Of a stretch of 64,000 nucleotides of DNA, positions 2,731 to 58,518 are shown piece by piece. This stretch comes from Candidatus Babeliales bacterium (GTDB lineage Bacteria; Babelota; Babeliae; Babelales; RVW-14), in assembly GCA_019749895.1 (NCBI GenBank), contig JAIEPG010000005.1, forward strand, positions 6,884 through 70,883. Reading direction: 5' to 3'. The translations under genes and the position numbers were made by a program. Position 1 is the stretch's first letter. Each line of letters begins with the position of its first letter. The notes under the pieces were generated by a model. The model made no database searches, was not told where the DNA came from, and saw only the letters and a list, made by a program, of their open reading frames with translations.

Positions 2731-3183
2731 CTAAAAAAGTAAGCACGAAGAACCGTACGTTACTACGCCCTCTTCATCAGAATCATTGTAATTGATATCT
2801 GTCGTATCATAAAGAGGATGATTAGGATCTGAGCTAAGTTCATAGGGAACCCGATTTTTTCTTTCTTCTTGTTCTTTTCTTCGTTTTTCATGAAAATCAC
2901 GTTGTATTCGTCGTAAATTTGCAATATACGCACGATTCTTTTGTAAAAATTTCCAATGAGCTTCCAACTCAGCCAATTTCTTATCAAACAACTCTCCAGA
3001 CTTTTTTACGTCTTCGGCTGAAACAGGAAACTGTTCAGACTCTAACGATTCTTGTGAATCACAATCAGGAGAAGGCGTACGATCTTGATGACGTGAGATT
3101 GAACTACTCGCAGCAGCAAACAATGAAGTCGCTGATGCAACAAAACTAACCGAAAGTAAAAGTATCAATAAGTGCTTTTTCAT
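2731..3183 (-). CDS. secreted coiled-coil protein ending in CaaX-like CLLF
   Basis: GGAGGAATT RBS then leader MKKHLLILLLSVSFVASATSLFAAASSS. Charged helical middle (KKLAELEAHWKFLQKNRAYIANLRRIQRDFHEKRRKEQEERK). C-terminus is ...GSSCLLF-stop. The longer ORF to 3393 was rejected. Confidence 0.6.
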   Translation of the reverse strand: MKKHLLILLLSVSFVASATSLFAAASSSISRHQDRTPSPDCDSQESLESEQFPVSAEDVKKSGELFDKKLAELEAHWKFLQKNRAYIANLRRIQRDFHEKRRKEQEERKNRVPYELSSDPNHPLYDTTDINYNDSDEEGVVTYGSSCLLF

Positions 3184-3199
3184 AATTCCTCCAAAAATA

Positions 3200-4531
3200 T
3201 TATTCGCGATTACCGCGTTTACGCACAACTCGTAGATCTTTTGTTGCATCATCGCTATCGCTATCACTCTCAGGGCTTGCCTGAATAAATGGCGAAAGTA
3301 ATGGCGCACTTGTTGGCACCGATGGTAAAAGCATGGTAAATAAATCAAGACGAAAACTTTCTTCACTTTGCATATCAACACCATCATAAGCACAAGAGCG
3401 ATTACGCTTTGAAGTTGAAGACGAAGAACTTGACGAAGTCGGTAAACTTAAGGTTTCAGACTCAACCATGATAGTTTTTGGCTCATGATCTATATCACAG
3501 TGCCGCTTGATTAATGAGTCTGTGCTTTCTTGTCCACGCTTATTTTTACTTGAAAAAACAAGCTCATGCTCAACCGGAGCCCCTTCAACATAACCAACAT
3601 ACAAAGAAAGTCCCTTACACGTTTGCCGAATTGCCAAATGTAACTCATCAAAAACTTCTTTCCATGAATCATGCAATACCAACTCGGTCACTCCAGCTTG
3701 TAATGCCTGTTCAATCTTTATGCGCAGCACAAGATGCCTAAACGAAATATTTCTAGGAATTACAAGAGCAGATCCATCACCAAACCGAATAACAACCTCT
3801 CCTGTACAAGCATCTTCAAGAACACTTTGAGCACTTTTTGCGTGTGGAGCAGGAAATTCACGAACCAGGTCGCCACGTTTCGACCAAAAACTAATAACCT
3901 TGCCGTCTATTGCGATGGTGTAAACCCCCTCAGGACGACAAAGAATCTGATCTCTAATGTGACTGCTTGGTTTGATTGTTACAATTTCACCACCGTCTAA
4001 TGATATTTGCGTTGTTTTATCAGTAGCTCTTCCAATACTATAATTCTTACTTGGTAAAAAATTGGAGCAATAATACTCTTGAAAATAAGAATGGCTAAAC
4101 CTAGGATGCAATTTCACAAAACAAGACATGAGCGCGCCATGCATACGTTCTAATGCGTCAAAATTTTTATCCAACGATATTGATGAAACTATACATTCGG
4201 CAAATTTTTGCTTTTGCTCACCCGTCATGGTATTTATTTTTTTTCCTAAAAATATCATAACATCATGCAAACCAGGCTTTGTACTTGGAACTCTTTCTTG
4301 AAACATTTCTTGAAGAAAAGCAACAAGTCTCCCGGCAAATGCATCGTGCTCGCTTGGAATAAGAGTCAAGCAAGAAAACAATGATACAAAGTCATCGTTC
4401 TCATCATGCAACGATGAACGTGCGCTTGAGCTTGACGAACTTGAACTCGAAGAGCTTGAACTTGATGCACCAAAAAGTGGCGCACCAAAAGCAAGCGAAA
4501 GCAATAATAAGCTGTAATTAAAAAATTTCAT
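3200..4531 (-). CDS. secreted Ser-rich hypothetical protein (MKFFNY family)
   Basis: Leader MKFFNYSLLLLSLAFGAPLFGA followed by 14 consecutive Ser. A second poly-Ser tract lies near the C-terminus. Its C-terminal domain is related to the 6117-6665 product (LVLRIKIEQALQAGVTELVLHDSW vs LLILKLEQLKRENHTEVTLHETW). Confidence 0.7.
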   Translation of the reverse strand: MKFFNYSLLLLSLAFGAPLFGASSSSSSSSSSSSSSARSSLHDENDDFVSLFSCLTLIPSEHDAFAGRLVAFLQEMFQERVPSTKPGLHDVMIFLGKKINTMTGEQKQKFAECIVSSISLDKNFDALERMHGALMSCFVKLHPRFSHSYFQEYYCSNFLPSKNYSIGRATDKTTQISLDGGEIVTIKPSSHIRDQILCRPEGVYTIAIDGKVISFWSKRGDLVREFPAPHAKSAQSVLEDACTGEVVIRFGDGSALVIPRNISFRHLVLRIKIEQALQAGVTELVLHDSWKEVFDELHLAIRQTCKGLSLYVGYVEGAPVEHELVFSSKNKRGQESTDSLIKRHCDIDHEPKTIMVESETLSLPTSSSSSSSTSKRNRSCAYDGVDMQSEESFRLDLFTMLLPSVPTSAPLLSPFIQASPESDSDSDDATKDLRVVRKRGNRE

Positions 4532-4555
4532 AATAACCTCTTTTGATCAATTTTT

Positions 4556-5806
4556 TTATCTACGCGTTGTTCGCTTAGTTGATGAAGAGCTTGAGTTTCT
4601 TCCTGTAGAATCACTCGACTGTGTACGCTTTGCAACAGGAGTTGTTCTTGTTGTATCACTATCACTATTCTCATCATCACTACTTTCATAATCATAACTT
4701 CTTGACGCGTGTGAAGAAGATGATGATGACGAAGAAGAAGACGAAGAGAATGATGATGATTGTAAAACACTTGAAGAACTTGGACTCGACGTTTGCGGCT
4801 CATTTAGAAAACTCATGAAATCAGCAAATTCCTCTGGATAATCATGAACGGGTCTACGGCGTCGCTTTTCGTTTCCTTGTTCTTCTTCTCGCTCAAAAAG
4901 TACTTCATGCTTACGCTCAGAAGGTTCTGTTGGCGCATGAAAGGTAAGAACAGGAGTGTGCGGCCCAGATAAACCAAGAAATAATCTTTCTAAATGTTGA
5001 AAAACATTGCGACTGTATTCATCGCCACAATCGGCGTGTGATGTGCGGCTGTGATGCCGCTTAGTGCTGCTGTCTTGTTCAAGTCGTTTCTCGCCATACT
5101 CGCAGTCATGCACATCAAGACGCTTGCTCGTTTGAATTGTTGGCGAATATTTTGGCGAATACATAATAAGTGCGGTCGATGTTACTGATGGAATAATCTG
5201 AGCTCCATAACAAACATTGCGATATTTCAAAAGATTGGTTTGAGCACGCGAAGGTATCAAAACCCCATCTTGATAATGAGAAAATGTTTGATTTTTAAAA
5301 AATTGCGCTGCTACTTGAAAAATGTTTTCATGCGAATGATAACCCATAATCGCACCCAAAGCAGACTGTGGCACGGTAGCCACATCAATCTTCCTGGTAG
5401 CAATCTTACCGTCTGGTGCAATGCCATAACCGCAAAGAACTTTTGTATCCACATCAAGAACTAATACAGCAACAACATTATCGCGATCAGCTGCACACGA
5501 TTGAGCAACCTCATGGTAAGAACCGCTAAGAATACTGGCATCGCGAAAAATAACCACATAAATTTCACGACGCGCAACACTCAACGAACTTGATAACGAA
5601 GCTGAAACAGGCACTACTGGTGGCTGATACACAATGAGTTGGCGCGATGAAGAGTCAGACTGCTTTTCACTATCGTCCAAACAAAAAGCATCAAAAAACG
5701 TCGCTAATTCTTCAATTTCTCGATCTTTCGATGAACTTGCCGCACCAAAAAGTGATGCACTCAGCCCCAAAGAAAGTACTAATAAACCGTAGTTAAAAAA
5801 CTTCAT
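4556..5806 (-). CDS. secreted Ser-rich hypothetical protein (MKFFNY family)
   Basis: GGAGGTTATT-ATG, leader MKFFNYGLLVLSLGLSASLFGAASSS. Ser-rich C-terminal region (SSSFSSSSSSSSSSSS) ending in a basic tail. Confidence 0.7.
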   Translation of the reverse strand: MKFFNYGLLVLSLGLSASLFGAASSSKDREIEELATFFDAFCLDDSEKQSDSSSRQLIVYQPPVVPVSASLSSSLSVARREIYVVIFRDASILSGSYHEVAQSCAADRDNVVAVLVLDVDTKVLCGYGIAPDGKIATRKIDVATVPQSALGAIMGYHSHENIFQVAAQFFKNQTFSHYQDGVLIPSRAQTNLLKYRNVCYGAQIIPSVTSTALIMYSPKYSPTIQTSKRLDVHDCEYGEKRLEQDSSTKRHHSRTSHADCGDEYSRNVFQHLERLFLGLSGPHTPVLTFHAPTEPSERKHEVLFEREEEQGNEKRRRRPVHDYPEEFADFMSFLNEPQTSSPSSSSVLQSSSFSSSSSSSSSSSSHASRSYDYESSDDENSDSDTTRTTPVAKRTQSSDSTGRNSSSSSTKRTTRR

Positions 5807-5815
5807 AATAACCTC

Positions 5816-6116: not shown

Positions 6117-6665
6117 TTAAAGAATATGACAGAAACCACTATCAACTGTGGCACCACTGTCCAAGATATGTTCTTGGCCATAAGAAAACTTTATCTTAAT
6201 ATCATTAAAATAATTCTTCAATACAGCACTCAAGCGGCGATACGTAACAACCCAGGTTTCGTGCAACGTTACTTCAGTATGGTTCTCTCTCTTCAATTGC
6301 TCAAGCTTTAAAATAAGCAATGCTTCTTGAAAAGGCCGGCCGCTCAAGCAAATTTCATAGGTTTCAGATTCAGATAGTTGGATGGGAAGGTGGTAGGGAA
6401 CACCAACATCTTCGCCAAAATAGCCACAACCCTTCATGATATGATAGGGAAAAGGCCCTTGTTCGTCTTTTGCTATACACACCTGCTCACTCAATGCTTT
6501 GTCAACATCAAAGGCTAAAAGCTTTTGCATGTCTGGGTTATCTCTATGCGGACTCAAAAAAACAGGTCTAAGACCACGAATATGAGAATAATCATCTATC
6601 CCACCAAACACCGGCACGCTAAAAGCAAACGCAAATAAGACAAAAACAGACCTGAACAAGCTCAT
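6117..6665 (-). CDS. secreted hypothetical protein ending in CaaX-like CHIL
   Basis: Leader MSLFRSVFVLFAFAFSVPVFGG. Domain shared with the C-terminal half of the 3200-4531 product. C-terminus is ...DSGFCHIL-stop. Confidence 0.65.
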   Translation of the reverse strand: MSLFRSVFVLFAFAFSVPVFGGIDDYSHIRGLRPVFLSPHRDNPDMQKLLAFDVDKALSEQVCIAKDEQGPFPYHIMKGCGYFGEDVGVPYHLPIQLSESETYEICLSGRPFQEALLILKLEQLKRENHTEVTLHETWVVTYRRLSAVLKNYFNDIKIKFSYGQEHILDSGATVDSGFCHIL

Positions 6666-6769: not shown

Positions 6770-7921
6770 TCAAACCGCAAGAATGTGCACAGCAACCGTT
6801 GAACCAATACCACCCATATTGTGTGCCAGAGCAGTGCGGGCATTGGCTACTTGGCGCTGAGCGGCCGCACCGCGTAGCTGCCGAACCAGCTCAATAACTT
6901 GTGCCAAACCAGTAGCCCCAACCGGATGTCCCTGGGCCTTAAGCCCGCCAGACATGTTGACCGGCAAAGCGCCGCCCAGCGTTGTTATGCCTTGCGCGGT
7001 AGCACGTGCAGCTTGGCCAGGCTGGAAAAAGCCCAAATCTTCAAGCGCCATAAGCTCGGCCATAGTAAAGGCATCGTGCACTTCAACAAGATTGATATCG
7101 CGCGGCCCCACGCCTGCTTGCTGGTACGCGCGCTGCGCGGCTGTTTTGGTAGCAGAAAAAGAAGTAAGTGCGGTTCGCTCGCCAAACAATAACGAATCAG
7201 TTGCCACACCAGAGCCAACAATAAAGACCGGCTTTATGCCAGCTCGCTGGGCAAATTCCGGCGTTGAAAGGATCAGCGATGCAGCGCCATCGGTAATGGG
7301 CGCACAGTCAAACAAACCCAACGGGTCGGCAACCATGGGCGCATTGAGCGCCGTTTCTAAGGTAATTTCTTTGGTAAAATGAGCGTTGGGGTTGAGTGCG
7401 CTATGCTTATGATTTTTAACGCTCACATGCGCAAGGTCGCTGCGCGTAATGCCATGCTCATTAAAATATAAGCGCGTAATCAGCGCAAAAAGACTGGGAA
7501 AGGTAAGACCCACAAAATGGTCGGCCTCTTGCAAGCTCGCACCAATCATGCTGGTTGCCAGCACGCCGGCATCAACGTCGGTCAACTTTTCTACACCGCT
7601 GACCAGCACCACTTCAGCTGTGCCCGCTTGAATAAGCGCCATGCCCTGCTGCAACGCCAGCGAACCGGAAGCACAGGCACCCTCAACGCGCACACTGGGC
7701 ACATTAAGATTTAACACGTGTGCGGCCAACGCACCAAGATGCAACTGCCCTGCGGCACTTTCGCCAGACATGTTGCCCACCACCAACGCATTAATTTGGT
7801 GTGCCGCTAAACCGGCATCGCTCAACGCTCCCAACTGACTATGTGCCAGCAAATCGCTGAGCGACTGGTGCCACAACTCACCAAATTTTGTTTGGCCAAT
7901 GCCAATAACGGCAACTTTCAT
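6770..7921 (-). CDS. acetyl-CoA acetyltransferase (thiolase, archaeal/SCP-x-like type)
   Basis: MKVAVIGIGQTKFGE N-terminus, active-site Cys context VEGACASGSLAL, C-terminal NMSGGLKAQGHPVGATG and AHNMGG. ATGA overlap with the HMG-CoA synthase gene. Confidence 0.85.
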   Translation of the reverse strand: MKVAVIGIGQTKFGELWHQSLSDLLAHSQLGALSDAGLAAHQINALVVGNMSGESAAGQLHLGALAAHVLNLNVPSVRVEGACASGSLALQQGMALIQAGTAEVVLVSGVEKLTDVDAGVLATSMIGASLQEADHFVGLTFPSLFALITRLYFNEHGITRSDLAHVSVKNHKHSALNPNAHFTKEITLETALNAPMVADPLGLFDCAPITDGAASLILSTPEFAQRAGIKPVFIVGSGVATDSLLFGERTALTSFSATKTAAQRAYQQAGVGPRDINLVEVHDAFTMAELMALEDLGFFQPGQAARATAQGITTLGGALPVNMSGGLKAQGHPVGATGLAQVIELVRQLRGAAAQRQVANARTALAHNMGGIGSTVAVHILAV

Positions 7922-8970
7922 GCATCACCGTGCAAAGCTTTGAGATGCTGCAAATACGTTGCATACGAAACATATTTTTTTTCGGCCAGATACGCACGCG
8001 TTTGACGCGCTTTGTTTTGTACCACCACCAACTGCTCAGTTGTTTTAATCACAAACGCATCACAACCACTACCGCTGCCATAACTTACTAGTACAATTGT
8101 TTGATGTGGCTTAGCACTGTCGAGCACCGCGGTCAAACCCAGTAATGAATTGGCACTGTACGAATTTCCCAGCGTTTCAACCAACAAGCCACTCGCCAGT
8201 TGCTCACGAGAAAAACCAAGTTGACGTCCAACCATGAGCGGGAACTTGCCGTTGGGCTGATGAAAAATAACATGATCAACGTCACGTGGTTGCAAATTGT
8301 GCTGGGCAAGTAAGGCTTGTGTTGCTGCGACAACGTGCGCAAAATAGGCAGGCTGCGCGGTAAAGCGCCCCTCGTGCTCGGGGTAAGCGGCCAACGAGCG
8401 TCGCCAAAAATCCGGGGTATCGGAACTGTACGAAAGCGTGCGCTCAACCACCGCACAGGCATTTGCTACATCGTGTGAAACAATAAATGCAGCAGCGCCG
8501 GCACCGGCAGCATATTCCAAAATATCGCCCGACTTTGCTTGTGCGGTATCACTACCCACTGCCAACGCACATGAGGCCATTCCGCTTTTCACCACGCCCA
8601 AGGCTGCTTGCAGCGCAGCGGTACCACCTTTGCAGGCAAATTCAAAATCGGCAGCCAGGTAGTTGTTACCAATCCCTAAAACTTCTCCCAAAATGGTTGC
8701 TGAGGGCTTAACGGCATACGGATGGCTCTCGCTACCCACATAAACTGCTTGCAATGCCGGCGCTAAACACGCCGCACGCGTTAACGCATTTTTTGACGCA
8801 ACAACCGCCATAGTTAGCGCATCTTCGTCTGGCCCTGGTAACGATTTTTCACTCAGGCCAAGAGATTCTGCAATGCGCACAGGATCATCGCCACACGCAC
8901 GGGCCAACTCTTGAACAGCAATGCGATAGCGCGGAATGTAGGCACCATAGCCAATAATACCAGCAATCAT
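7918..8970 (-). CDS. HMG-CoA synthase, short (~350 aa) archaeal-like form
   Basis: GIIGYGAYIPRYRI start typical of the short archaeal-type enzymes. Catalytic Cys context DFEFACKGGTAAL. HQPNGKFP and SYGSGSG motifs. Confidence 0.85.
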   Translation of the reverse strand: MIAGIIGYGAYIPRYRIAVQELARACGDDPVRIAESLGLSEKSLPGPDEDALTMAVVASKNALTRAACLAPALQAVYVGSESHPYAVKPSATILGEVLGIGNNYLAADFEFACKGGTAALQAALGVVKSGMASCALAVGSDTAQAKSGDILEYAAGAGAAAFIVSHDVANACAVVERTLSYSSDTPDFWRRSLAAYPEHEGRFTAQPAYFAHVVAATQALLAQHNLQPRDVDHVIFHQPNGKFPLMVGRQLGFSREQLASGLLVETLGNSYSANSLLGLTAVLDSAKPHQTIVLVSYGSGSGCDAFVIKTTEQLVVVQNKARQTRAYLAEKKYVSYATYLQHLKALHGDA

Positions 8971-10235
8971 TATTGAAACCCTTCCGCCAAGAGCGCACGC
9001 GCACGCGCAACTGAAATATTTTTTTCAAGCACCATACAACTGGCCACAGCCTCAATTGCAGCACCGGTGGCGCCGGCAGTGATAGCAATATTTTGACTGT
9101 GCAGCCGCATATGGCCGTACTGAATGCCTTCGGTTACCAGCGCTCGCAGCGCAGCAAAATTTTGTGCCAAGCCCACCGCACCCACAACACCTGCCAACTC
9201 TTGCGCCGTTGCAACGCCAAGTATTTTAAGTGCTAAGCAGGCAGTTGGATGACTTTTGGTAATTCCGCCAACGGTTGCCACTGCCAGAGGCATTTCAACA
9301 TGCCCCACCAAATCACCCGCTTCATTTTTTTCATACCAACTGAGCGGCTGATAACTGCCCGTGCGAGCGGCATAACTATGCACACCCGCTTCGGCAGCAC
9401 GAGTATCGTTACCGGTTGCCAAGCACACAGCAACAACGCCGTTCATAATACCTTTGTTGTGCGTTGCCGCACGATAACTGTCGGCCGCTGCAAAGGCACT
9501 GGCTTGTACCATGGCATCGATGGTTGGCTGACCCAGCATTTCTTGCTTCCAGGTTGCAGCAACACGCACCACGCGCTCGGGAGAAAAATTGGAAACTATG
9601 CACAACCGCACCTGCCCGCCACACATTTTTTGGATCAGCGGGGCTATACGCTCGGCCATGGTATTTACAATGTTGGCGCCCATGGCATTGCCCACATTTA
9701 CACTCAATTTGATTGAGAGGCACAATTCGTTATTGATCAAGAGCTCGTGACCCACCACATCTACCGCCCCTCCGCCATGCTCAAGCAAGACTGGGTCGGC
9801 TTGATTGGCGTAGCTTAAAAGTTCGTTTTTGTGCGCATTAAGAGCCTGCAAGGCTTTGTAACAGTCGGGCACGCTTGCCAACAAAATTTGGCCGGTCATA
9901 AGCGGAAAACCGCCATGCGCAGTAAAGCCTCCGGCAACACGAGCAAGCTTAGCGCCGTACGAAGCAGCCGCAACCACACTAGGCTCTTCGGTAACCATGG
10001 GAATAAGATAATCATTGCCATTAACCATAAAATTGGTCGCTATGCTCAAGGGAAATGACATGACCGAAACAACATTTTCACTCATTTTTTGGGCATGAGA
10101 GATGGCCAAAGAAGCGCCAGACTGCAAGGCCTGAACCTCTTGATTAGTAAGATCGGCAAAGGCTTGAACATGCTGCAAGCGCTCTTCAACTGATTTTTTA
10201 TAAAAAGCGGGAAATCTACTGCACCTGTTTTTCAT
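8970..10235 (-). CDS. mvaA: HMG-CoA reductase, class II
   Basis: ~420 aa soluble form. SENVVSVMSFPLSIATNF, MVTEEPSVVAAAS (class II signature), VGNAMGANIVNTMAE, ATVGGITKSHP. ATG at 10235 preferred over TTG at 10250. Confidence 0.9.
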   Translation of the reverse strand: MKNRCSRFPAFYKKSVEERLQHVQAFADLTNQEVQALQSGASLAISHAQKMSENVVSVMSFPLSIATNFMVNGNDYLIPMVTEEPSVVAAASYGAKLARVAGGFTAHGGFPLMTGQILLASVPDCYKALQALNAHKNELLSYANQADPVLLEHGGGAVDVVGHELLINNELCLSIKLSVNVGNAMGANIVNTMAERIAPLIQKMCGGQVRLCIVSNFSPERVVRVAATWKQEMLGQPTIDAMVQASAFAAADSYRAATHNKGIMNGVVAVCLATGNDTRAAEAGVHSYAARTGSYQPLSWYEKNEAGDLVGHVEMPLAVATVGGITKSHPTACLALKILGVATAQELAGVVGAVGLAQNFAALRALVTEGIQYGHMRLHSQNIAITAGATGAAIEAVASCMVLEKNISVARARALLAEGFQ

Positions 10236-10459
10236 GCAACCACCACGCAAGCAAGCTTTGTTAGCTTGTTTTATGCCATTTAAGAAAAAGAATATCGTGA
10301 AAGGTAATGGATATCTTGCGCTCTGTCAATTAGTTACTACTACCGATACAAACCAAGCAAACCACACGCTTTCAATTTCTTTTATCAAAATCATTGATAA
10401 TAATATTTACTATTTGATATTTTAATAAGTAGTAGTATTAAAATAAAGAGGAGAGGCCC

Positions 10460-12016
10460 ATGAAGTCATTATGCTCATTAGTCAAATCGGTTACAACGCT
10501 TTTTGCTGTTGTAGCTCTATTTGTTGGTTCTGCCTTGTCGGCAGCATCAACAAATCCGCTTAATATTCCTACCAACTTTGCAAGCCAAGCCAATATCGAC
10601 GACCTTGCCACTGGCTATTTTAAGCAAATCAGCGGCATGTCGACCGTCGAAAACAAAATTCAAGCGCTCTCAACATTAATCGACCGCTCAGATCGCGCAA
10701 CGTTTAACGCCTCCACCCAAACGGCTTTTGGCAAACTCGTTGAAGACGCTTACAAAATGGCCACTTCAGAAAGTAGCCAACTATTGCTCTTGCCAGTACT
10801 TTCACAAGCACAGTCAAGCACGTTATTGGCACCAGTACAACAGAATTATGTCGCACAAAATATGATTTTTGGCGTTCTAAAAAACTTAATTACTACCGCT
10901 GCTCAAAAATCGACCTATCAAGATCGCTTAAATAGCCTTTCTGCCATTACCAACCCAAACAATTTTGTAACCAGACGCGGCTTGCGCATAACCCTTACGC
11001 AAGGCGTTCGCGATCTTTACTACCGAACATTGGTACAGTTGTACGAACAACGCACCAACCAAAGCAACCAAGCACAAGCACAACTGCGCGATATCATGCG
11101 CACAGCACTCAAAGGCAGCGTTCCTTTGCTCGACAACCGCCGCCGCCAATACGTAAGCCAACAGCTGTTACCAAAATTAGACGCTTTTAAAGAATTTAAA
11201 AAAGAAAGCACAACCACCAGCACAAGCGGAGCAACGGGCACTGGAGCAACAACTGGCACAACCACCGGTGGAACAACCGCAGGTACTGACAGCTCTGGCG
11301 TTCAAACAGGAGCTGGAAGCGCTACTGGCACTGGCACCTCGGGCACCGGCACAACTGCTGGCAGCCAACTGAGTGCTGGCAATGTTGCAGGCACGGGTAG
11401 TACCGACAGCCAATCAGGAACAGGTAGTGTTTCAGTTCCTGGTATTCCAGATGCTGGCACCGGCACAACCACAGGCACAACTGCAAGCTCAGGTAGCAAA
11501 ACAACGCCAGGTACCGGCAGCCTTGACGCTCAATTAGCAACAGCAACAGGAACAGGTACCTCGACAGCCGATACCAGTAACACGGTATTTAATGACGACA
11601 GAATTAAACGCTTATTAGACAGTATTGGTAAACAACCGCTCATCGAAAATCGCTTACGCTTTATGTCCAAGCTAACTGCAAAATCAGGCTCCGGAACCTT
11701 TAAGCCAGAAACACAACAAGCATACGCCGATCTCTTGGTAGAAGTAGCAAAACAAAGCAGAGAAGTTGCTACGCTTGCTCAAGACCTGCTCAAAGCAGCA
11801 AGCACCTCACCGTTACTCTCAACCAAACAACAAAAGTACGTAACATCAACCATGATACCACAGCAAACTCAACCACTTGCAACAGTAGAAACAACAATAC
11901 CTGGAGCAAAAAAACAAAAGGTCGCCAAAGTAAGAAAAGAACGTCGCGTTCAAAAGAGCGGTAAGCGCCAAGGAATAAAAGCAGGCAAAACCAAAAGAGC
12001 TGCTCAAAATCAGTAA
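10460..12016 (+). CDS. secreted protein with three copies of a novel ~80-aa module, a Thr/Gly-rich linker and a basic tail
   Basis: GAGGAG RBS, leader MKSLCSLVKSVTTLFAVVALFVGSALSAAS. Modules end in LLAPVQQNYVAQNMI, LLDNRRRQYVSQQLLP and LLSTKQQKYVTSTMIP. The T/G linker is roughly nt 11207-11585. C-terminal tail is KKQKVAKVRKERRVQKSGKRQGIKAGKTKR. Confidence 0.7.
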   Translation: MKSLCSLVKSVTTLFAVVALFVGSALSAASTNPLNIPTNFASQANIDDLATGYFKQISGMSTVENKIQALSTLIDRSDRATFNASTQTAFGKLVEDAYKMATSESSQLLLLPVLSQAQSSTLLAPVQQNYVAQNMIFGVLKNLITTAAQKSTYQDRLNSLSAITNPNNFVTRRGLRITLTQGVRDLYYRTLVQLYEQRTNQSNQAQAQLRDIMRTALKGSVPLLDNRRRQYVSQQLLPKLDAFKEFKKESTTTSTSGATGTGATTGTTTGGTTAGTDSSGVQTGAGSATGTGTSGTGTTAGSQLSAGNVAGTGSTDSQSGTGSVSVPGIPDAGTGTTTGTTASSGSKTTPGTGSLDAQLATATGTGTSTADTSNTVFNDDRIKRLLDSIGKQPLIENRLRFMSKLTAKSGSGTFKPETQQAYADLLVEVAKQSREVATLAQDLLKAASTSPLLSTKQQKYVTSTMIPQQTQPLATVETTIPGAKKQKVAKVRKERRVQKSGKRQGIKAGKTKRAAQNQ

Positions 12017-12239: not shown

Positions 12240-13325
12240 ATGAAAAAATTTATGAACGCATTTATTATTGCCCTCGCACTTACCGCCAACGCACTGCCAG
12301 CGGCAGAACCAACGCTTGACGAGCTGCATGCTGCAATAGAACATAACAATATTCCCGTTCTTGATACTTTGCTTCAACAAAATCCAAACATTTTTGAGCT
12401 AGACATTGAAAAAGGAACACCGCTGCACTACGCAGTTAAAAAAAATAATCAAGAAGCTGTGCAAGCACTGCTCAACTACGCCACCCAAAAAAATCTGCTC
12501 TTCCATATTCTTGATAGTAGGGACTGCGATAACCTGACTCCTCTTGAATTTGCAGACCGCCTTGGTCGTACGGGCTGCGCAACCCTCATGCGTAAGTACC
12601 AAAACATGATCGCCTTTGACTATGACGAAGCTGGCAACGCACACCCACTGCCAACAACACCTGTACGCCAACCAGCTTCAAGAGATAATCAGCTCATCGT
12701 GTCCTACAGCACTCTAAACAAACCAATTAAATTGCGCACGGCCATAATCACCAAAAACGTCACCCAAGCTGAGGATCTTTTGACAGAGAACAAAGACCTC
12801 CTTTTAGACCAAGATAGCAATAAAGATACGCTTCTTCATGGCGCTGTCCTTGTGGATAGTTTTGAGTGTGCACAAGTAATACTTGCTCATGCACAACAGC
12901 AAAATGTCTTGAATGCAATCCTCAATGCTCAAAATGCACAGGGACAAACAGCTCTGCATATGGCTGTTATGAAAAAAACAGTGATGTTGATTGCAGACGA
13001 CGAAACGGTCAAGCCAACGAGCCACATGATCGAAGATTCGCGCTTTGCCCAAGAAATTATTGATTATGCCCAAACAAGCGGCACGCTCTCTTTGATTATC
13101 AACATGAGCGATAACAAAAACGAAACGCCACTCCACCTGGCGGCAAAGGCAAAAAATGACGTGTGCATTCGGCTTCTTCTTAGCCAAGGAGCTGACACCC
13201 AAGCCCGTAACTCAATGGGACTGAGTCCCGTTGATCTTCTGCGCAAACGTGAAGATGCCGATCTGATAACCCTTTTCAAAACACAACAGAAAAAACAAAA
13301 ACAGGAAAAGTGCGTAATTTGCTAA
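12240..13325 (+). CDS. secreted ankyrin-repeat protein A1, polybasic + CaaX (CVIC) C-terminus
   Basis: Leader MKKFMNAFIIALALTANALPAA. ANK units GTPLHYAVKKNNQEAVQALL and ETPLHLAAKAKNDVCIRLLLSQGAD. Ends KKQKQEKCVIC-stop. Confidence 0.85.
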   Translation: MKKFMNAFIIALALTANALPAAEPTLDELHAAIEHNNIPVLDTLLQQNPNIFELDIEKGTPLHYAVKKNNQEAVQALLNYATQKNLLFHILDSRDCDNLTPLEFADRLGRTGCATLMRKYQNMIAFDYDEAGNAHPLPTTPVRQPASRDNQLIVSYSTLNKPIKLRTAIITKNVTQAEDLLTENKDLLLDQDSNKDTLLHGAVLVDSFECAQVILAHAQQQNVLNAILNAQNAQGQTALHMAVMKKTVMLIADDETVKPTSHMIEDSRFAQEIIDYAQTSGTLSLIINMSDNKNETPLHLAAKAKNDVCIRLLLSQGADTQARNSMGLSPVDLLRKREDADLITLFKTQQKKQKQEKCVIC

Positions 13326-13361
13326 AGAAAAATAAAAATTAAGAACCAAAAAGGTTATATC

Positions 13362-14276
13362 ATGAAAAAATTTATGAGCCCACTAATTATCGCCCTTGCT
13401 CTTAACGCCAACGCACTGCCTGCAGCATCTAGTTACGGAGAAATCCCTGAAGTAGAATTAAGCAGAGCAATAAAATTAAACGATTTAGCTTCAATAACCT
13501 TCTGGATAAAAACAGCAAACTTACGTACACAAGATAGTGATGGCAATACACCACTTCACCTTGCCATTATTCATAACAACAAACAAGCAACAGCTGGTAT
13601 TATTTTTTCAGCACAAGAACAAAATATTCTTCCTCAAATCTTAAACATAGAGAATAACAAGGGAACTACACCGCTACAACTCGCACAACGTTCTAGCAAT
13701 AAAGAGCACCTAAAATTTATAGCCTCTATTGCCCCCGAAGAAGCACAATTTGTAAAACCCAAACAAAAAACTTTTCTTTTATTCAGGACAATAGGAACGA
13801 ACAACATTGATGAACTGAAACAATTACTGAGACAAGACAACCTCAAGCCAGCACTTCATTTTGCAACCAACAACAACAAACCTGAGTGCTTACATACAAT
13901 CTTGAGCTATGCACAGGAAAAAAACATGCTCTTAGAAACGCTCAGAACAACCAACGAACGCGGCCAAACAGCACTACATGTAGCAGCAATAAATGGCTTT
14001 ACGTTATGTATGCAAGAAATAGTTATGTTAGTACATAGTGATCCTGCAATACTGAATCTACGTGATAATAAAAACCAAACACCTCTTCATTTAGCTGCAC
14101 AACATGATCACGAAGAATGTGTTCGCATACTACTCGCCGCAGGCGCTGATACTGAATTTTCAGACACTCATGGCAATACAGCAGCTCAATGTGCTCGACA
14201 AAATAGACATGAAGACATTGCTATGATCATTGAGAAAAACGAAAAAAACAAAAAAGAAAAATGCGTCATTTGTTAA
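13362..14276 (+). CDS. secreted ankyrin-repeat protein A2, polybasic + CaaX (CVIC)
   Basis: Leader MKKFMSPLIIALALNANALPAA. GNTPLHLAIIHNN, QTALHVAAINGF, QTPLHLAAQHDHEECVRILLAAGAD. Ends KNKKEKCVIC-stop. Confidence 0.85.
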   Translation: MKKFMSPLIIALALNANALPAASSYGEIPEVELSRAIKLNDLASITFWIKTANLRTQDSDGNTPLHLAIIHNNKQATAGIIFSAQEQNILPQILNIENNKGTTPLQLAQRSSNKEHLKFIASIAPEEAQFVKPKQKTFLLFRTIGTNNIDELKQLLRQDNLKPALHFATNNNKPECLHTILSYAQEKNMLLETLRTTNERGQTALHVAAINGFTLCMQEIVMLVHSDPAILNLRDNKNQTPLHLAAQHDHEECVRILLAAGADTEFSDTHGNTAAQCARQNRHEDIAMIIEKNEKNKKEKCVIC

Positions 14277-14305
14277 TGAACGTTTATTTAAAAATAGGTT
14301 ATATC

Positions 14306-14848: not shown

Positions 14849-14876
14849 AGAGATCATTTTACTCGCTAATAAAAAA

Positions 14877-14905
14877 GGGGCAGGAAATTCCTGCTCCTTT
14901 TTCTT
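14877..14905 (+). terminator. rho-independent terminator after A3
   Basis: ggggcagg-aaattc-cctgctcc stem-loop (8 bp, one G-U) followed by tttttc. Confidence 0.65.
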
Positions 14906-14929
14906 TGTCTCAATTTTTGGCAAGCTGGG
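14903..14929 (+). promoter_or_regulatory. copy 1 of the array-A intergenic promoter-like cassette
   Basis: ctttgtctcaatttttggcaagctggg aligns with the consensus TTTGCATAAATTTTTGGCATGMTACA seen at 15469, 16086, 19043 and 21273. Confidence 0.3.
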
Positions 14930-14977
14930 AAAAAACATAACAGATTTTTTCATGTCAAAAATTTTAGGAAAAAGAAT

Positions 14978-15442: not shown

Positions 15443-15468
15443 CCTTTTCATTTTCAGCATTCTCTTTT

Positions 15469-15495
15469 CTTATGCAACCGTTTTTTGGCATACTG
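15469..15495 (+). promoter_or_regulatory. copy 2 of the promoter-like cassette
   Basis: cttatgcaaccgttttttggcatactg. Confidence 0.3.
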
Positions 15496-15552
15496 AAAAA
15501 AATTTTCTGATGTCAAAAAATAGTAGATAGTGATTTAATGGAGATAGTTATC

Positions 15553-19034: not shown

Positions 19035-19042
19035 GTATTTTT

Positions 19043-53840: not shown

Positions 53841-54965
53841 ATGGGAATTCAAGCTGGCCTTGTTGGGCTACCCAATGTTGGCAAATCCACACTCTTTAAC
53901 GCTCTGACCAAATCAAGCATTCCGGCGGCAAATTACCCGTTTTGCACCGTTGATCCGCACGTTGCTATAACGTACGTCCCAGACCCACGTTTGGACGATC
54001 TGGCAAAGGTATTTAAGTCTGAAAAAAAAATTCCGACCATGGTCAAGTTTGTAGACATTGCCGGCCTGGTAAAAGGTGCAGCTGAAGGCGAAGGCCTGGG
54101 TAACCAGTTTTTAGGCACCATCATGGAAGTTGACTTGGTACTACACGTGCTCCGCTGCTTTGAAGACGGCGAAATTACGCACGTTCAAGGCACCGTTGAT
54201 CCCGTTAACGACTTTGAAATCATTTGCGCTGAACTCATGCTCAAAGATCTTGATTCGTTAAACAAACGCGAAGAGCGTTTAAACTCAATGATCAAAAAGA
54301 AACAAGCCGCTAACCCTCAACAAGCAAAAGAGTGGGAAGCTGAAAAAGAATATATCCCATTGCTCCGAGATGCTTTGAACAAATTTGACTTGGCACAAGT
54401 GCAAGCACTATTTCGCAAAGCTAAGGCAGAAAAGTTGCCCTTGCAACCACTACTTTCTGGCAAAAATTATTTGCTTATTGCTAACGTTTCTGAAGATGAT
54501 TATGCTGGCACCAATTACGAAAACAACCGCCATTATCAAGCACTTGTTGCAAAGTTTGGCAAAGACAACGTTATTCCCGTTTCAGCAAAAATTGAATCTG
54601 AATTGGCTCAAATGGACGATGCTGACGCCAAAGAAATGATGCAAGATCTTGGCATTACGCACAAAGGTCTTGATGACATTATTGCACGCGCGTACAAAGA
54701 ACTTGGCTTAATTACTTTCTTTACCTGCGGACCCAAAGAAGCTCATGCGTGGAGTTTGCGTAAAGACACTAAAGTGCCGCAAGCAGCTGGTGAAATTCAC
54801 TCAGACCTTGAACGTGGTTTTATTTGTGCTGAAGTGTATAACCACCGCGATCTTATGCAAGCTGGTAGTGAGCAAAAGCTTAAAGAAACAGGCAAGATGC
54901 GCACTGAAGGCAAAGAGTATATTGTGCAAGATGGCGACCTCTTGAATATTCGCTTTAACGTTTAG
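53841..54965 (+). CDS. ychF: ribosome-binding ATPase YchF (Obg-like)
   Basis: GLVGLPNVGKSTLFNALT G1 motif, DIAGLVKGAAEGEGLGNQFL, C-terminal TGS-like EGKEYIVQDGDLLNIRFNV. Confidence 0.9.
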   Translation: MGIQAGLVGLPNVGKSTLFNALTKSSIPAANYPFCTVDPHVAITYVPDPRLDDLAKVFKSEKKIPTMVKFVDIAGLVKGAAEGEGLGNQFLGTIMEVDLVLHVLRCFEDGEITHVQGTVDPVNDFEIICAELMLKDLDSLNKREERLNSMIKKKQAANPQQAKEWEAEKEYIPLLRDALNKFDLAQVQALFRKAKAEKLPLQPLLSGKNYLLIANVSEDDYAGTNYENNRHYQALVAKFGKDNVIPVSAKIESELAQMDDADAKEMMQDLGITHKGLDDIIARAYKELGLITFFTCGPKEAHAWSLRKDTKVPQAAGEIHSDLERGFICAEVYNHRDLMQAGSEQKLKETGKMRTEGKEYIVQDGDLLNIRFNV

Positions 54966-55034: not shown

Positions 55035-56258
55035 CTACTCAGTACCGCCAAGTGCTTCAAGTAGAGATTTTAACTCTGGAGACGACGCAAGCCCGTAGGC
55101 TGTTTTTTCATTTTTATCGCGCACATTAATATCAGTCCAATTGCCTTGCTCCAAAATGAGCCCAAGAACTTCAATAAAATTGTTTTTTGCTGCCACGTGC
55201 AACGGCGTTTGTCCTTCTTTATTTACAACATTGCAAGGTGCATTATACTCAAGAAGTAACTGAACAAGAGCTTTGTCCCCACGCGAAGCTGCCAAATGAA
55301 GTGGCGTTTGTCCTTCGGCATCGCACACATTAACATTAAAACCATTTGCAAGCATCCGCCACAAAGCTTCTCGGTTGCCACGCACCAATGCTGCTTTAAA
55401 TGCACCAAAGCCGGTTACTTGCGGCGCAATTGAAAGATCTGCAAGACTGGTAGCAAGAGAAGCAATATCGTCGCATCTTTCAACTCTTTTAATAGCTCCA
55501 ACATCATAAAGCGCTTGACTACGTCCAGCTGGCTGCCGCGTAAGCGCATCAAGGACATCTTGATTGCCCTTGGAGTACGCCAACTCAAAAGCACTTTTGT
55601 GACCAATAACTTTTTCATGCGGATCTGCACCACAGCGACGCAATGCTCTAATCATGTCGGGATTGTAGACATCAACCGCATGATGCAACAGCGTAAAACC
55701 TTCTTCGTCAAACACGTTTACAAGACCAGGGTTTTTCTGCAACAACGTTTGCAAATCAGCTAGCTTATCATTCGCAATACAAATACAAGCTTGTTCAAAA
55801 ACAGGACTTGGCACTCCTGGAGATGATGACCTGATTGGTGATCTTTGTATCCCCAACTTATAACCAGAACTATCGTCAAAATAGGCTAAAAACGGATCCG
55901 ATGTAGCGGACCCTTCAGGCTCACTTTGCATTGCCTCCAAAAGAACGGGAACAAGAACTTGGCGAACCATTTCATTATCACATTCCAACGCAAGATCAAG
56001 AGCCGTTTGTCCACGACTGTCAGGCTCAGACAAGCCATGGCCAAATTCAATTAACTGCCACGCACGCTCATGGTTACCCTGTAAAATGGCATAATGCAAA
56101 GGAGTTCCAAAATATGAAGCATCTCTTGATGATGAAGAACTAGAACTTGAAGAAGAAGAACCATCTCTAGTACCATCTGAAGAATAAGAACATGATGCAC
56201 CAAAAATAGATGACGTTAAACTTACAGCACATATAAATGCAAAAATAGTTCGTTTCAT
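55035..56258 (-). CDS. secreted ankyrin-repeat protein C17 with poly-Ser tract
   Basis: Leader MKRTIFAFICAVSLTSSIFGA, then a run of 11 Ser. GTPLHYAILQGNHERAWQLI, FTLLHHAVDVYNPDMIRALRRCGAD, QTPLHLAASRGDKALVQLLLEYNAP, QTPLHVAAKNNFIEVLGLIL. Confidence 0.9.
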   Translation of the reverse strand: MKRTIFAFICAVSLTSSIFGASCSYSSDGTRDGSSSSSSSSSSSRDASYFGTPLHYAILQGNHERAWQLIEFGHGLSEPDSRGQTALDLALECDNEMVRQVLVPVLLEAMQSEPEGSATSDPFLAYFDDSSGYKLGIQRSPIRSSSPGVPSPVFEQACICIANDKLADLQTLLQKNPGLVNVFDEEGFTLLHHAVDVYNPDMIRALRRCGADPHEKVIGHKSAFELAYSKGNQDVLDALTRQPAGRSQALYDVGAIKRVERCDDIASLATSLADLSIAPQVTGFGAFKAALVRGNREALWRMLANGFNVNVCDAEGQTPLHLAASRGDKALVQLLLEYNAPCNVVNKEGQTPLHVAAKNNFIEVLGLILEQGNWTDINVRDKNEKTAYGLASSPELKSLLEALGGTE

Positions 56259-56309
56259 AAAATTTCTCAGGTATAAATCTTGTCACAAAATAAGTTATCA
56301 GTAAGTTTT

Positions 56310-56738
56310 TTAGCAAGACTGAGATCGAGGACGCTCGAACGGTACTTCGTCACGATCAAAAGCATCAAGAAGATCTTCGTAAAAACGAACTATCTGCATT
56401 GCTTCACGGTTATTGCACTCAAAAGCATATTGATACAACGTATACCAACATGAAGCATATCCATAACTGATAGACATGCGAACGAGATGGAAGTTCTCAC
56501 GTAAGATACTGTCCAACTCATTGTTAAAACCATTATAAATAAACTTAAAAGCCAACAGCATGCTATAGTTATCCGCAGCTGCCTTGCTTCGATCTGCTAC
56601 ATTAGCAACTGCGGGGCTTGGGCATATGCCTTTAAACGCTGAATTTTCATATTCAGGATCTAAACCCAAAGCAAAACCAGCAGCAAAAACGTTACCAGAA
56701 CACAGCAAAAATAAAGTAACTATAGCTAGACGTTTCAT
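56310..56738 (-). CDS. small secreted hypothetical protein D1
   Basis: Leader MKRLAIVTLFLLCSGNVFAAG. Start overlaps the D2 stop by 1 nt (TAATG). Confidence 0.6.
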   Translation of the reverse strand: MKRLAIVTLFLLCSGNVFAAGFALGLDPEYENSAFKGICPSPAVANVADRSKAAADNYSMLLAFKFIYNGFNNELDSILRENFHLVRMSISYGYASCWYTLYQYAFECNNREAMQIVRFYEDLLDAFDRDEVPFERPRSQSC

Positions 56739-57103
56739 TAAAATGACCCCCTGCGACCGCACTCTGCAAAAACACCCTTTTCTACTTCTGCTTGAACAGA
56801 GGCTATAATGCTTAACGCTTCTTGATCGTTGACACCTTGAGCAAGTTGCTGCAATGTTTTATCATCAAAACTCTTCATATTTAAAAGCCCTGGAAACTGC
56901 CACAAAGCACCTTCAAAACTATCGTAATTACCCATTGCCAAATCGTTTATTGCGCAGGCAAAAGAACTATTCAGCTGAGTAGCTCTCGGCCTAATAGAAC
57001 AGCTTTTTTTTAATTGACGGAGCTTACAACTACCAGCAGCTGGAAAGGCAGAGCCAACACATACTACCAATACACACACAAGTGCAAAAATAATTCTTTT
57101 CAC
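56738..57103 (-). CDS. small secreted hypothetical protein D2
   Basis: GTG start. Leader (M)KRIIFALVCVLVVCVGSAFPAAG. FACAINDLAMGNYDSFEGALWQFPGLLN is paralogous to D3. Confidence 0.6.
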   Translation of the reverse strand: MKRIIFALVCVLVVCVGSAFPAAGSCKLRQLKKSCSIRPRATQLNSSFACAINDLAMGNYDSFEGALWQFPGLLNMKSFDDKTLQQLAQGVNDQEALSIIASVQAEVEKGVFAECGRRGSF

Positions 57104-57162
57104 AAAAACCTCATGGTAAAAAAATAAAAGCGAATTTTTCAGATTAGAACAAACCAGAGAAC

Positions 57163-57567
57163 TTAATTCCCACATTGCGAAAAACTTTGACATCCCAAAT
57201 CGCCCTCCAAAGAATACCTGCCACGCACCTCACGGATAAGAGTAATAGCAGTCCCATCATTACTTTCTTCAGCAAGCTCCTCTAACGTTTTTCCATCTGC
57301 CAAAGCTTGTTCGTTAACAAGTTGAGGATACTGCAAAAGAATCTCCTCAAACTTTACATAATTCTTTAGAGCTAAAAAAGTGGTTGCACAAGCAAAAGCA
57401 ACCATAACTCGCGTAGGATCTGAAAGCGTGTGACGGGAATGTTGCAACCTTGGAGGCATCGACTTGGAACGTCGTCCCCTCTTGCTCCCCTTCTCATACC
57501 CAGCCGCAGCAGAAACAGAACCAACACTCAACAATAATGCACACACAAAAACAAACATACGTTTCAT
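57163..57567 (-). CDS. small secreted hypothetical protein D3
   Basis: Leader MKRMFVFVCALLLSVGSVSAAAG. FACATTFLALKNYVKFEEILLQYPQLVN. Confidence 0.65.
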   Translation of the reverse strand: MKRMFVFVCALLLSVGSVSAAAGYEKGSKRGRRSKSMPPRLQHSRHTLSDPTRVMVAFACATTFLALKNYVKFEEILLQYPQLVNEQALADGKTLEELAEESNDGTAITLIREVRGRYSLEGDLGCQSFSQCGN

Positions 57568-57611
57568 AATTACTCCTAAATTACGATTTCTTATAAAATT
57601 ATGACGTAAAC

Positions 57612-57962
57612 TTATACCTCAAGGATGTTATCTTTTTCTCGAGCATCTTGCTCATGTGACTTACCAACATCTTCAAAATTCATAAGACACTCCGCAACTC
57701 GCCAGTTACCTGCCTCATTTGCATAGTCAAAAAGCAGCCAGCCGTTATCGTCCCCCATTGTTACTAATTCGCGATGAACACACAAAATTTTATTTGCTTC
57801 ATCAGTGGCTTCGTTACTTTCATCTTTGATCAGGTCAACTACTCGAGCAAATAACGTAGACAGGTCAGGAGTCTGAGACAAATTGTTAGGCTGAGCAGCG
57901 GCGGCAAAAGCAGAGCCAACACTCAACAAAAATGCACAAAAAACAAAAAAATTACGTTTCAT
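57612..57962 (-). CDS. small secreted hypothetical protein D4
   Basis: Leader MKRNFFVFCAFLLSVGSAFAAAA. Confidence 0.65.
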   Translation of the reverse strand: MKRNFFVFCAFLLSVGSAFAAAAQPNNLSQTPDLSTLFARVVDLIKDESNEATDEANKILCVHRELVTMGDDNGWLLFDYANEAGNWRVAECLMNFEDVGKSHEQDAREKDNILEV

Positions 57963-58009
57963 GATTACTCCTAAAAAAAATGAATAACTATCGGGGAGTA
58001 GATTATAGC

Positions 58010-58070
58010 CTAACTGCGCATGCTATACAAATAGAATTGTCAGCAGAATACGGTATAAACAGCATTGGCC
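58010..58070 (-). pseudogene. decayed duplicate of the last ~20 codons of the PQ-loop gene
   Basis: 57991-58070 aligns at roughly 80 percent identity (by eye) with 58549-58627. The relic reads FC*QFYLYSMRS* where the intact gene reads FCLQFYLYRTRV*. Confidence 0.7.
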
Positions 58071-58110
58071 CATTACCAGCACCAAGAATTTTATGAAAGA
58101 GACAGGAAAA

Positions 58111-58518
58111 CTAGATCGATTTTCTACGCATTCTCGCTGCTTCTGAACTTGGGTAAACTCTTTCAATTTCATCTACCACTTGCCCAAGAATATCAAGGCC
58201 TTGATCACTGCCACACACTGAAGCAATTTTGCTAAGCTTCACGCCGCTAAAATAGATGTCCAATACGATAAGAAGACTGTGAAGCCTGCCCCAGTTTCTC
58301 TGTACAGCAAAGATTATAGCCTCGGCACACGTCATCTCCATGAGCTGCTTTTTTTCATCATAACTTCCACGCATAATCGGGCCTGATTTGGGCGCGCATG
58401 CAGGAGGATACCCCATGAGAGGATGAAGCCTCTTCAAAGGACGACGCCCACCAGCTGCAGCAGACAAGGAACCAAAACTCAATACCAGTACACACGTAAA
58501 AAAAATAACTCGCTTCAT
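58111..58518 (-). CDS. small secreted hypothetical protein D5
   Basis: Leader MKRVIFFTCVLVLSFGSLSAAAGG. Confidence 0.65.
   Translation of the reverse strand: MKRVIFFTCVLVLSFGSLSAAAGGRRPLKRLHPLMGYPPACAPKSGPIMRGSYDEKKQLMEMTCAEAIIFAVQRNWGRLHSLLIVLDIYFSGVKLSKIASVCGSDQGLDILGQVVDEIERVYPSSEAARMRRKSI

Follow-up and report, generated by a model that had tools for sequence, protein, structure and literature searches.

The phylum Dependentiae (TM6) is made up of obligate intracellular parasites of protists. In Babela massiliensis the type II secretion system (T2SS) was the sole secretion system detected, and the genome carries islands rich in ankyrins and secreted proteins, along with 37 tandem duplications (PMC4378268). 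In Chromulinavorax destructans, signal peptides were found on 44% of the coding sequences and on 78% of 98 ankyrin proteins, a Sec system is present and outer-membrane vesicles were seen (PMC6561590). T2SS parts and two copies of gspD belong to the core of TM6 genomes (PMC4776705). Here we analyzed a stretch of 64,000 nucleotides (hereafter the window) from contig JAIEPG010000005.1 of the Candidatus Babeliales assembly GCA_019749895.1, in which positions 2731-58518 are densely filled with genes bearing Sec-type leaders. We consider it likely that the window holds secretome islands of a Babeliales bacterium, consisting of Sec-tagged, fast-evolving ankyrin and orphan proteins that would act in the host and whose leaders are not frozen.

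Open reading frames (ORFs) were extracted and their start codons curated, and a gene was counted as signal-bearing if its product began with an n-region containing Lys or Arg and continued into a hydrophobic core. This yielded 54 genes, 53 of which fall in 2731-58518, where they take up 37,182 of the 55,788 bases (67%), in good agreement with a preliminary description of the same DNA that had placed about 50 of roughly 75 genes, and over half of the window, in this class. A net charge of at least +1 precedes the hydrophobic core in 51 of the 54 proteins. The core has a median length of 11 residues, below that of a membrane span, and is followed by a heuristically assigned (-3,-1) small-residue site (AHG, VHG, AAA and PAA among them) in 49. 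Cores of 18 residues or more occur in four proteins, three of them taking in the Ala-rich c-region and one being anchor-like (31857; genes are named here by their first coordinate); the two members with anchor-like N-termini are this TPR protein and the M23 peptidase 36796. Lipoprotein, Tat and prepilin leaders were rejected on inspection of the leader listing. By one strict heuristic, 42 of 70 window ORFs were signal-positive versus 39 of 177 ORFs in our phylum comparison set, 34 YchF loci of other Dependentiae, and the enrichment of the window in signal-bearing genes is real even for this phylum.

Pfam models Ank, Ank_2, Ank_3, Ank_4 or Ank_5 scored above their gathering thresholds in 33 genes; 45956 gave an ankyrin match below threshold and 46703 none. 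All 33 ankyrin proteins have a hydrophobic N-terminus, the positive n-region being missing in three (28132, 51537 and 52010). All-against-all BLAST clustering of the mature parts joined 32 genes of the tandem arrays B, C, D and E (listed below) into one ankyrin network, whereas at least five separate paralogue families had been proposed. Poly-Ser, basic and acidic tracts are present among the signal-bearing proteins, as had been described. No NCBIfam match was found for nine signal-bearing proteins, eight of which also lack a Pfam match.

A homology search with the YchF protein encoded at 53841-54965 returned as its best relatives only metagenome-assembled genomes of Candidatus Babeliales, Dependentiae and TM6, with protein identities of 99% to the closest, about 74% to the next and at most 49% to other phyla. 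By these matches the source is a Candidatus Babeliales (Dependentiae/TM6) bacterium of an uncultured lineage; the window sequence itself was found at 100% identity in two Logan runs. The genome nearest to the window, GCA_019746485.1, matches it at about 85-86% DNA identity over two syntenic stretches, YchF and its flanking DNA included. These stretches, L082 (orthologous to window 2.6-22.9 kb) and L002 (window 50.4-57.9 kb), are both at this same level of identity, so that GCA_019746485.1 is best taken as a sister genome from a different organism; the alternative of a mixed bin, with L082 as a further syntenic contig from the assembly of the window itself, was ruled out. The specific families appear to be confined to these two genomes as far as our homology and metagenome searches went, which found no relatives elsewhere. 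The close matches of an array-B ankyrin protein were itself, one window paralogue and two sister-type orthologues, the others being generic ankyrin proteins. An exhaustive search among 1.84 billion representatives recovered the sister orthologue, at 78% identity, as the sole relative of the orphan 3200-4531, and metagenome scans using nucleotide patterns of the array D and array B leaders gave no matches.

Comparison with the sister genome separated the signal-bearing genes sharply from their surroundings. Housekeeping orthologues are 91-99% identical at the protein level, with a ratio of non-synonymous to synonymous divergence (dN/dS) of 0.05 (0.01 for YchF), whereas the mature parts of signal-bearing proteins are only 41-83% identical (BLASTP) with a dN/dS of 0.35-0.37; at non-synonymous sites, signal-bearing genes are evolving at about seven times the housekeeping rate. 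Array members have also been gained, lost and reordered between the two genomes. The orthologue of 12240-13325 is placed after those of 13362 and 14306 in the sister (window 12240-14848 versus L082 10001-12576), 14978-15442 has no orthologue there, and L082 15561-15950 and 19150-19659 have none in the window.

A further feature of these proteins lies at their C-termini. Of the 54 signal-bearing proteins, 8 have Cys at position -4, where 1.1 would be expected (P=1.6e-5), and neighbouring positions have no comparable excess. The eight tails (CLLF, CHIL, CVIC, CVIC, CIIS, CIIS, CLIS and CSLQ) are CaaX boxes, in which the two residues after the Cys are mostly aliphatic and the last one fits farnesyltransferase (S, C, Q) or geranylgeranyltransferase I (L, F), and three of them are preceded by a polybasic tract, for example KKQKQEKCVIC. 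Sister orthologues keep the CaaX box in six of six cases (CSLL, CHIL, CVIC, CAIC, CIIC and CLIS) despite a protein divergence of 19-35%, and this conservation argues for action in the host cytosol; Cys at -4 is also kept in a third related sequence (P0004). Among 120 ankyrin homologues, the combination of a signal peptide with a CaaX box is restricted to this lineage, and the 34 other Dependentiae YchF loci contain one ankyrin-motif ORF and no CaaX. The literature that we searched held no paper pairing Dependentiae with prenylation. If 29567-30220, which has a weak amidase match, is a periplasmic amidase, its CLIS ending would be a coincidence, and this is a warning not to take each Cys-x-x-x at a C-terminus for a site of prenylation. 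The view that features of the window point to action inside a eukaryotic cell is supported, with the CaaX boxes as the clearest case, and the dense, Sec-tagged, ankyrin-rich and fast-evolving block with eukaryote-directed features that had been described is borne out, its CaaX boxes being conserved in the sister genome.

The signal-bearing genes and the other features of the window are as follows.

2731-3183, minus strand: signal-bearing orphan of 150 residues ending in CLLF, with an internal ATG start (MKKHLLILLL) and no Pfam match; the sister orthologue ends in CSLL.
3200-4531, minus strand: poly-Ser orphan of 443 residues with leader type A (MKFFNY...LFGA-SSS).
4556-5806, minus strand: poly-Ser orphan of 416 residues with leader type A; its mature part is unrelated to that of 3200-4531.
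6117-6665, minus strand: signal-bearing protein of 182 residues ending in CHIL, an ending that the orthologue retains at 81% identity.
10460-12016, plus strand: signal-bearing protein of 518 residues with no known domain and a basic C-terminus; the sister orthologue is 82.5% identical (BLASTP).
12240-21807, plus strand: array B, 12 tandem ankyrin genes (Pfam Ank families) with leader M[IKN]KK...LAL..TA[LM]PAA.
Array B, genes 1-6, plus strand: 12240-13325, 13362-14276, 14306-14848, 14978-15442, 15553-16020 and 16184-16915.
Array B, genes 7-12, plus strand: 16961-18319, 18357-19034, 19122-19529, 19574-20314, 20362-21282 and 21364-21807.
Array B, CaaX boxes, plus strand: four genes (CVIC, CVIC, CIIS and CIIS), three with a preceding polybasic tract.
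21841-22512, plus strand: signal-bearing protein of 223 residues with no domain and a basic C-terminus.
25449-30220, plus strand: array C, seven genes with leaders MKK...SAHG or LPLNAV.
Array C, weak-to-moderate ankyrin genes, plus strand: 25449-26315, 26347-26892, 26905-27303, 27334-28107, 28132-28896 and 28893-29570.
29567-30220, plus strand: last gene of array C, with a GTG start and a weak, sub-threshold Amidase_3 match, ending in CLIS.
31857-32207, plus strand: TPR protein with a 20-residue hydrophobic N-terminus, likelier a membrane anchor than a cleaved leader.
32320-34989, plus strand: four signal-bearing proteins with no known domains (32320-32751, 32932-33639, 33629-34351 and 34432-34989), the last two being paralogues.
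36796-38007, plus strand: M23 peptidase, hydrophobic near its N-terminus but lacking a (-3,-1) site; probably a housekeeping enzyme of the cell envelope rather than an effector.
38135-39385, minus strand: short secretion ATPase of the GspE/PilB family (PF00437 at 1e-128), 416 residues, without the N-terminal domain.
39408-39806 and 40040-40318: gene for a small membrane protein of the FUN14 family and HU gene, preceding the ATPase gene.
42417-53654, minus strand: array D, 16 tandem genes, most of which bear the leader M[LFI]KKIM...VG.SVHGA; 14 have Pfam ankyrin support.
Array D, genes 1-6, minus strand: 42417-43001, 43018-43560, 43598-44419 (ending in CSLQ), 44486-45340, 45357-45935 and 45956-46675.
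Array D, genes 7-11, minus strand: 46703-47413, 47444-48154, 48180-48641, 48670-49428 and 49464-50006.
Array D, genes 12-16, minus strand: 50105-50854, 50890-51516, 51537-52013, 52010-52864 and 52896-53654.
53841-54965: YchF, between arrays D and E.
55035-58518, minus strand: array E, leader MKR...LLSVGS.SAAA; its gene 55035-56258 encodes an ankyrin protein with poly-Ser.
Array E, small proteins with a common core of about 60 residues, minus strand: 56310-56738, 56738-57103, 57163-57567, 57612-57962 and 58111-58518.
62479-62904, minus strand: signal-bearing acidic orphan, beyond the range of the preliminary description.
62936-63979, minus strand: C-terminal part of SecA (SecA_SW, P-loop_SecA and SEC-C domains); the gene runs off the window.

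Several of these entries call for comment. The core of the small array E proteins (56310-58518; L002 5477-7052) reads ..IL...P.LV.M....GKTL.QLA.E.ND..A..II.., and when we asked whether they are degenerate single ankyrin repeats, profile comparison gave the expected register but no statistical support (E=0.39). Two opposite-strand ORFs, 18966-19526 (minus), which overlaps the ankyrin gene 19122-19529 (plus), and 49593-50369 (plus), which overlaps the ankyrin genes 49464-50006 and 50105-50854 (minus), are almost certainly spurious, and an annotation that simply takes the longest ORF can lose the true genes to them. The Fe/Mn superoxide dismutase at 349-1098 has an N-terminal extension of about 45 residues with a hydrophobic start and no positive n-region, and may be membrane-anchored or exported. 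A mevalonate-pathway cluster (1049-2538 and 6770-10250), comprising a GHMP kinase, an OB-fold ChsH2/DUF35-like protein, a thiolase, an HMG-CoA synthase-like protein and HMG-CoA reductase, adjoins CaaX-tagged genes; its combination of thiolase, synthase and OB-fold protein presumably recalls an archaeal-type complex.

The genomic setting of the arrays was compared with that of the same housekeeping genes in other Dependentiae. In L086, another Babeliales genome, the genes for PQ-loop, NurA, ABC-F, NIF3, YchF, MiaB-like, HU, FUN14 and T2SSE ATPase proteins are contiguous, and MiaB lies at most 3 kb from YchF in 26 of the 34 other Dependentiae loci. In the window, the MiaB-like gene and YchF are 11.5 kb apart with the 16 genes of array D between them, and array E is placed between YchF and the PQ-loop gene. 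Arrays D and E thus appear to be insertions into a conserved housekeeping backbone. The MiaB/YchF gap (window 42343-53840) holds a single unrelated signal-bearing ORF in several other genomes (loci L004, L006, L007, L009, L010, L011, L021 and L036), which makes it a recurrent slot for variable, lineage-specific secreted genes across Dependentiae.

No gene of a type I, III, IV or VI secretion system (T1SS, T3SS, T4SS, T6SS) was found in the window; the last three had already been described as absent. The sole secretion genes are the partial secA and the GspE/PilB-family ATPase gene, as the preliminary description had it, but the ATPase gene, which it called an orphan, is not a remnant. This short form is conserved across Dependentiae at 52-63% identity and belongs to a conserved HU-FUN14-ATPase triad (window 38135-40318, L085 9073-11233 and L086 9113-11236), in which only a few bases lie between the end of the FUN14 gene and the ATPase gene; to our knowledge, a FUN14 partner for a secretion ATPase has not been described. 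Its neighbours in the window are the M23 peptidase, FUN14 and HU genes, and in L085 and L086 too gspD, gspF and gspG are not adjacent. The ATPase matches the GspE model TIGR02533 at 513 bits (cut-off 630) and PilB at 474 bits (cut-off 676), and the TIGR02533 match starts at model position 97, the N-terminal domain being missing.

The leaders of the window had been described as near-invariant within each family, conserved at the nucleotide level together with some 15 nucleotides upstream, and kept while the mature parts diverged. All five leader motifs are present as written. However, when position-matched 66-nucleotide segments were compared, the mean pairwise nucleotide identity of leaders was 0.59-0.74 within families against 0.55 between families and 0.49 in shuffles, which is far from invariance, and the next three 66-nucleotide segments and the 30 nucleotides upstream were at baseline (upstream 0.48-0.56). 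Identities of 0.8-0.9 were reached only in sub-clusters of two to four genes (12240/13362/14306; four array-D genes; 57163/57612; 3200/4556). What stands of the upstream claim is a ribosome-binding region of about 10-14 nucleotides, common within these sub-clusters only. The nucleotide motif quoted in its support does recur, with four matches at up to three mismatches versus none expected, but it is leader-coding in array D (minus strand, 42-48 kb) and not upstream. The c-region motifs A[LM]PAA, SVHGA and SAAA are family-typical and statistically over-represented, and they are ordinary signal-peptidase-I sites. Pfam scans of the window proteins gave no match to any signal family, the phytoplasma SVM signal model included.

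Part of the likeness between leaders can be traced to exchange between neighbours. In the quartet of 13362 and 14306 with the orthologue of each, the informative sites of nucleotides 1-69 favour the grouping of paralogues over that of orthologues by 5 to 1, whereas those of nucleotides 70-540 favour orthologues by 155 to 1 (Fisher P=4e-8); the signal switches at the boundary between leader and mature part, which points to conversion restricted to the leader. The neighbours 3200 and 4556 are alike only over residues 1-27 (70% identity in profile-profile comparison), and their mature parts are each 74-77% identical to their own sister orthologue. The sister gene x6342 is a mosaic, its leader being nearest to that of 57612 (0.88) and its body orthologous to 57163 (0.85) and unrelated to that of 57612 (24%). 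Base composition contributes as well. The top strand is C-rich over the whole window independently of gene orientation, third-position GC skew is -0.33 in plus-strand signal-bearing genes and +0.31 in minus-strand ones, and leaders are higher in Thr/Pro on the plus strand and in Val/Gly on the minus strand. Since leader amino-acid composition tracks strand skew, part of the family flavour is mutational. We propose that tandem duplication would give neighbours similar leaders by ancestry, that short-tract gene conversion would homogenise the ribosome-binding site and leader between adjacent genes, that signal-peptide function would restrict leader composition, and that strand mutation bias would push plus-strand leaders towards Ala/Thr/Pro and minus-strand ones towards Val/Gly/Phe/Cys.

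These data bear directly on the possibility that the leaders are modular cassettes held identical by selection, for instance as a sorting code addressed to family-specific second-step exporters. The over-representation of the family-typical c-region motifs and the neighbours that have only a leader in common would fit such a code. The family means, though, exceed the between-family leader identity by just 0.04-0.19, much of what sets plus-strand leaders apart from minus-strand ones tracks strand composition, and the motifs are unremarkable as signal-peptidase-I sites. In the comparison with the sister genome, leaders of signal-bearing proteins are 38-100% identical at the protein level, with a dN/dS of 0.22 in one set and 0.56 in the other, the pooled dN/dS is 0.32 for leaders versus 0.36 for mature parts, and silent divergence (pS) is equal at 0.40 in both. 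With dN/dS alike and silent divergence equal, the leaders are under no special constraint at the protein or the nucleotide level, contrary to the idea of a leader kept while the mature part diverges. The family-specific leaders are not frozen cassettes; we regard a selected code as very unlikely, and tandem ancestry, local gene conversion and strand bias explain the likeness of leaders within the genome better than selective freezing does.

Where the proteins end up is a separate matter. That the N-terminal segments are uncleaved signal anchors displaying the proteins on the inner membrane is favoured by two members, 31857 with its 20-residue core and 36796, which has no (-3,-1) site; the median core, however, is too short to span a membrane, and in 49 of 54 proteins it leads into a polar stretch that has small residues at -3 and -1. 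We consider this explanation highly improbable. Retention in the bacterium, with most of the proteins in the periplasm or outer membrane and the ankyrin domains serving as chaperones, inhibitors or self-protection factors, is the main rival reading. Periplasmic ankyrin proteins are known from Rickettsia parkeri (RARP-1), Pseudomonas aeruginosa (AnkB) and Bdellovibrio (PMC9553169), the window contains no outer-membrane secretion gene, and some of its signal-bearing genes plainly encode envelope enzymes, such as the M23 peptidase and the protein with a weak amidase match. Against this stand at least 33 ankyrin genes in 56 kb that evolve at a dN/dS of about 0.36 with rapid gain and loss, unlike envelope housekeeping factors, CaaX boxes that are conserved in the sister, follow polybasic tracts in three cases and have no known periplasmic role, and the absence of the arrays from the same backbone in other Dependentiae. 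On balance, retention seems unlikely.

We therefore favour secretome islands whose products act in the host. Ankyrin-repeat genes and lineage-specific orphans would have expanded, as tandem arrays, inside a conserved housekeeping backbone. Their products, to judge from the features of the leaders, would carry an ordinary Sec-type signal peptide, be exported via SecA/SecYEG and be cleaved by signal peptidase I; by analogy with published work on relatives, they may then cross the outer membrane through the type II machinery of the phylum and/or leave in outer-membrane vesicles; and in the host cell, as motif enrichment and conservation suggest, the host farnesyl- or geranylgeranyl-transferase could lipidate the eight CaaX proteins and so direct them to a host membrane. 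Several points weigh against this interpretation. Signal-peptide cleavage was called by a home-made heuristic rather than a trained predictor, export beyond the periplasm is something that we infer for every protein of the window, and signal-bearing ankyrin proteins that stay periplasmic are known (PMC9553169). The window has no outer-membrane secretion component, and its GspE-like ATPase reaches neither the GspE nor the PilB equivalog cut-off and lies apart from any gspD, gspF or gspG gene. The CaaX box is found in only 8 of 54 proteins, three of them close paralogues, and the gene-conversion statistics come from one quartet with six informative leader sites, the 3200/4556 and x6342 cases being qualitative. 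A more specific proposal, to which we would give somewhat less than an even chance, is that Sec-processed ankyrin proteins reach the host cytosol without a T3SS, T4SS or T6SS, that a subset is prenylated by the host at the conserved polybasic-CaaX tails, and that the ribosome-binding site and leader are passed as a module between neighbours by short-tract gene conversion, making new or unrelated bodies competent for export. If true, the pairing of a Sec leader with a CaaX box would be direct sequence evidence of a two-step route into the host cytosol and a ready experimental handle.

For Dependentiae, which are widespread protist parasites, the field has so far had only inference that their Sec-tagged ankyrin proteins are secreted. 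The window adds a lineage that can be compared with a sister genome, and with it evolutionary rates, insertion sites in the backbone and a CaaX marker, and it does not overturn current views. Two details look unreported in the literature searched: conserved CaaX boxes on Sec-tagged proteins and leader-restricted gene conversion between neighbours. The former is a concrete marker of action in the host cytosol that can be tested by expression in eukaryotic cells without culturing the bacterium, and the latter is a small, clean example of export signals being kept or spread in effector arrays.

The window recalls several known systems. In the phytoplasma SVM signal family and the toxin superfamilies of cone snails, the leader is the most recognisable common segment and the mature parts are divergent or unrelated. 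The leaders of the window, by contrast, are not slow-evolving between genomes, have no Pfam signal-family match, and owe a likeness that is local at least partly to gene conversion. Legionella pneumophila AnkB is reportedly an ankyrin protein with a C-terminal CaaX box that undergoes farnesylation by the host and becomes anchored in one of its membranes, and Legionella CaaX effectors are delivered by Dot/Icm type IV secretion without a cleavable Sec leader. CaaX ankyrin proteins are thus common to both, but those of the window carry an N-terminal Sec leader and the window has no T4SS. The same contrast holds for the T4SS or T1SS ankyrin effectors of Legionella, Coxiella, Anaplasma and Orientia, as leaders are found on all ankyrin genes of the window and no T4SS or T1SS gene accompanies them. 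The contrast drawn earlier with the Rickettsiales is not absolute, since Rickettsia, also an obligate intracellular diderm, has in RARP-1 an ankyrin protein that bears a Sec signal at its N-terminus. In R. typhi this protein was proposed to be exported in two steps via Sec and TolC, and in R. parkeri it is periplasmic, but it is a single conserved gene with no expanding arrays and no CaaX box (PMC9553169).

The closest likeness is with Babela and Chromulinavorax. The window comes from a separate, uncultured lineage with about 43% G+C versus 27% in Babela, and neither CaaX tails nor leader gene conversion is mentioned in the papers on the two organisms (PMC4378268, PMC6561590). All three nevertheless belong to the same phylum and order; dozens of ankyrin proteins, most with Sec signal peptides, and islands mixing ankyrin genes with secreted orphans amid frequent tandem duplications characterize them, and in Babela and Chromulinavorax, which have no T3SS, T4SS or T6SS, Sec followed by the T2SS (and vesicles) is the proposed route to the host cytoplasm (PMC4378268, PMC6561590). 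The Sec-first route that the preliminary description had considered unusual is thus already a standing hypothesis for Dependentiae. We regard the window as a genuine and unusually dense example of this known system, with a core interpretation that is plausible and already published for the phylum.

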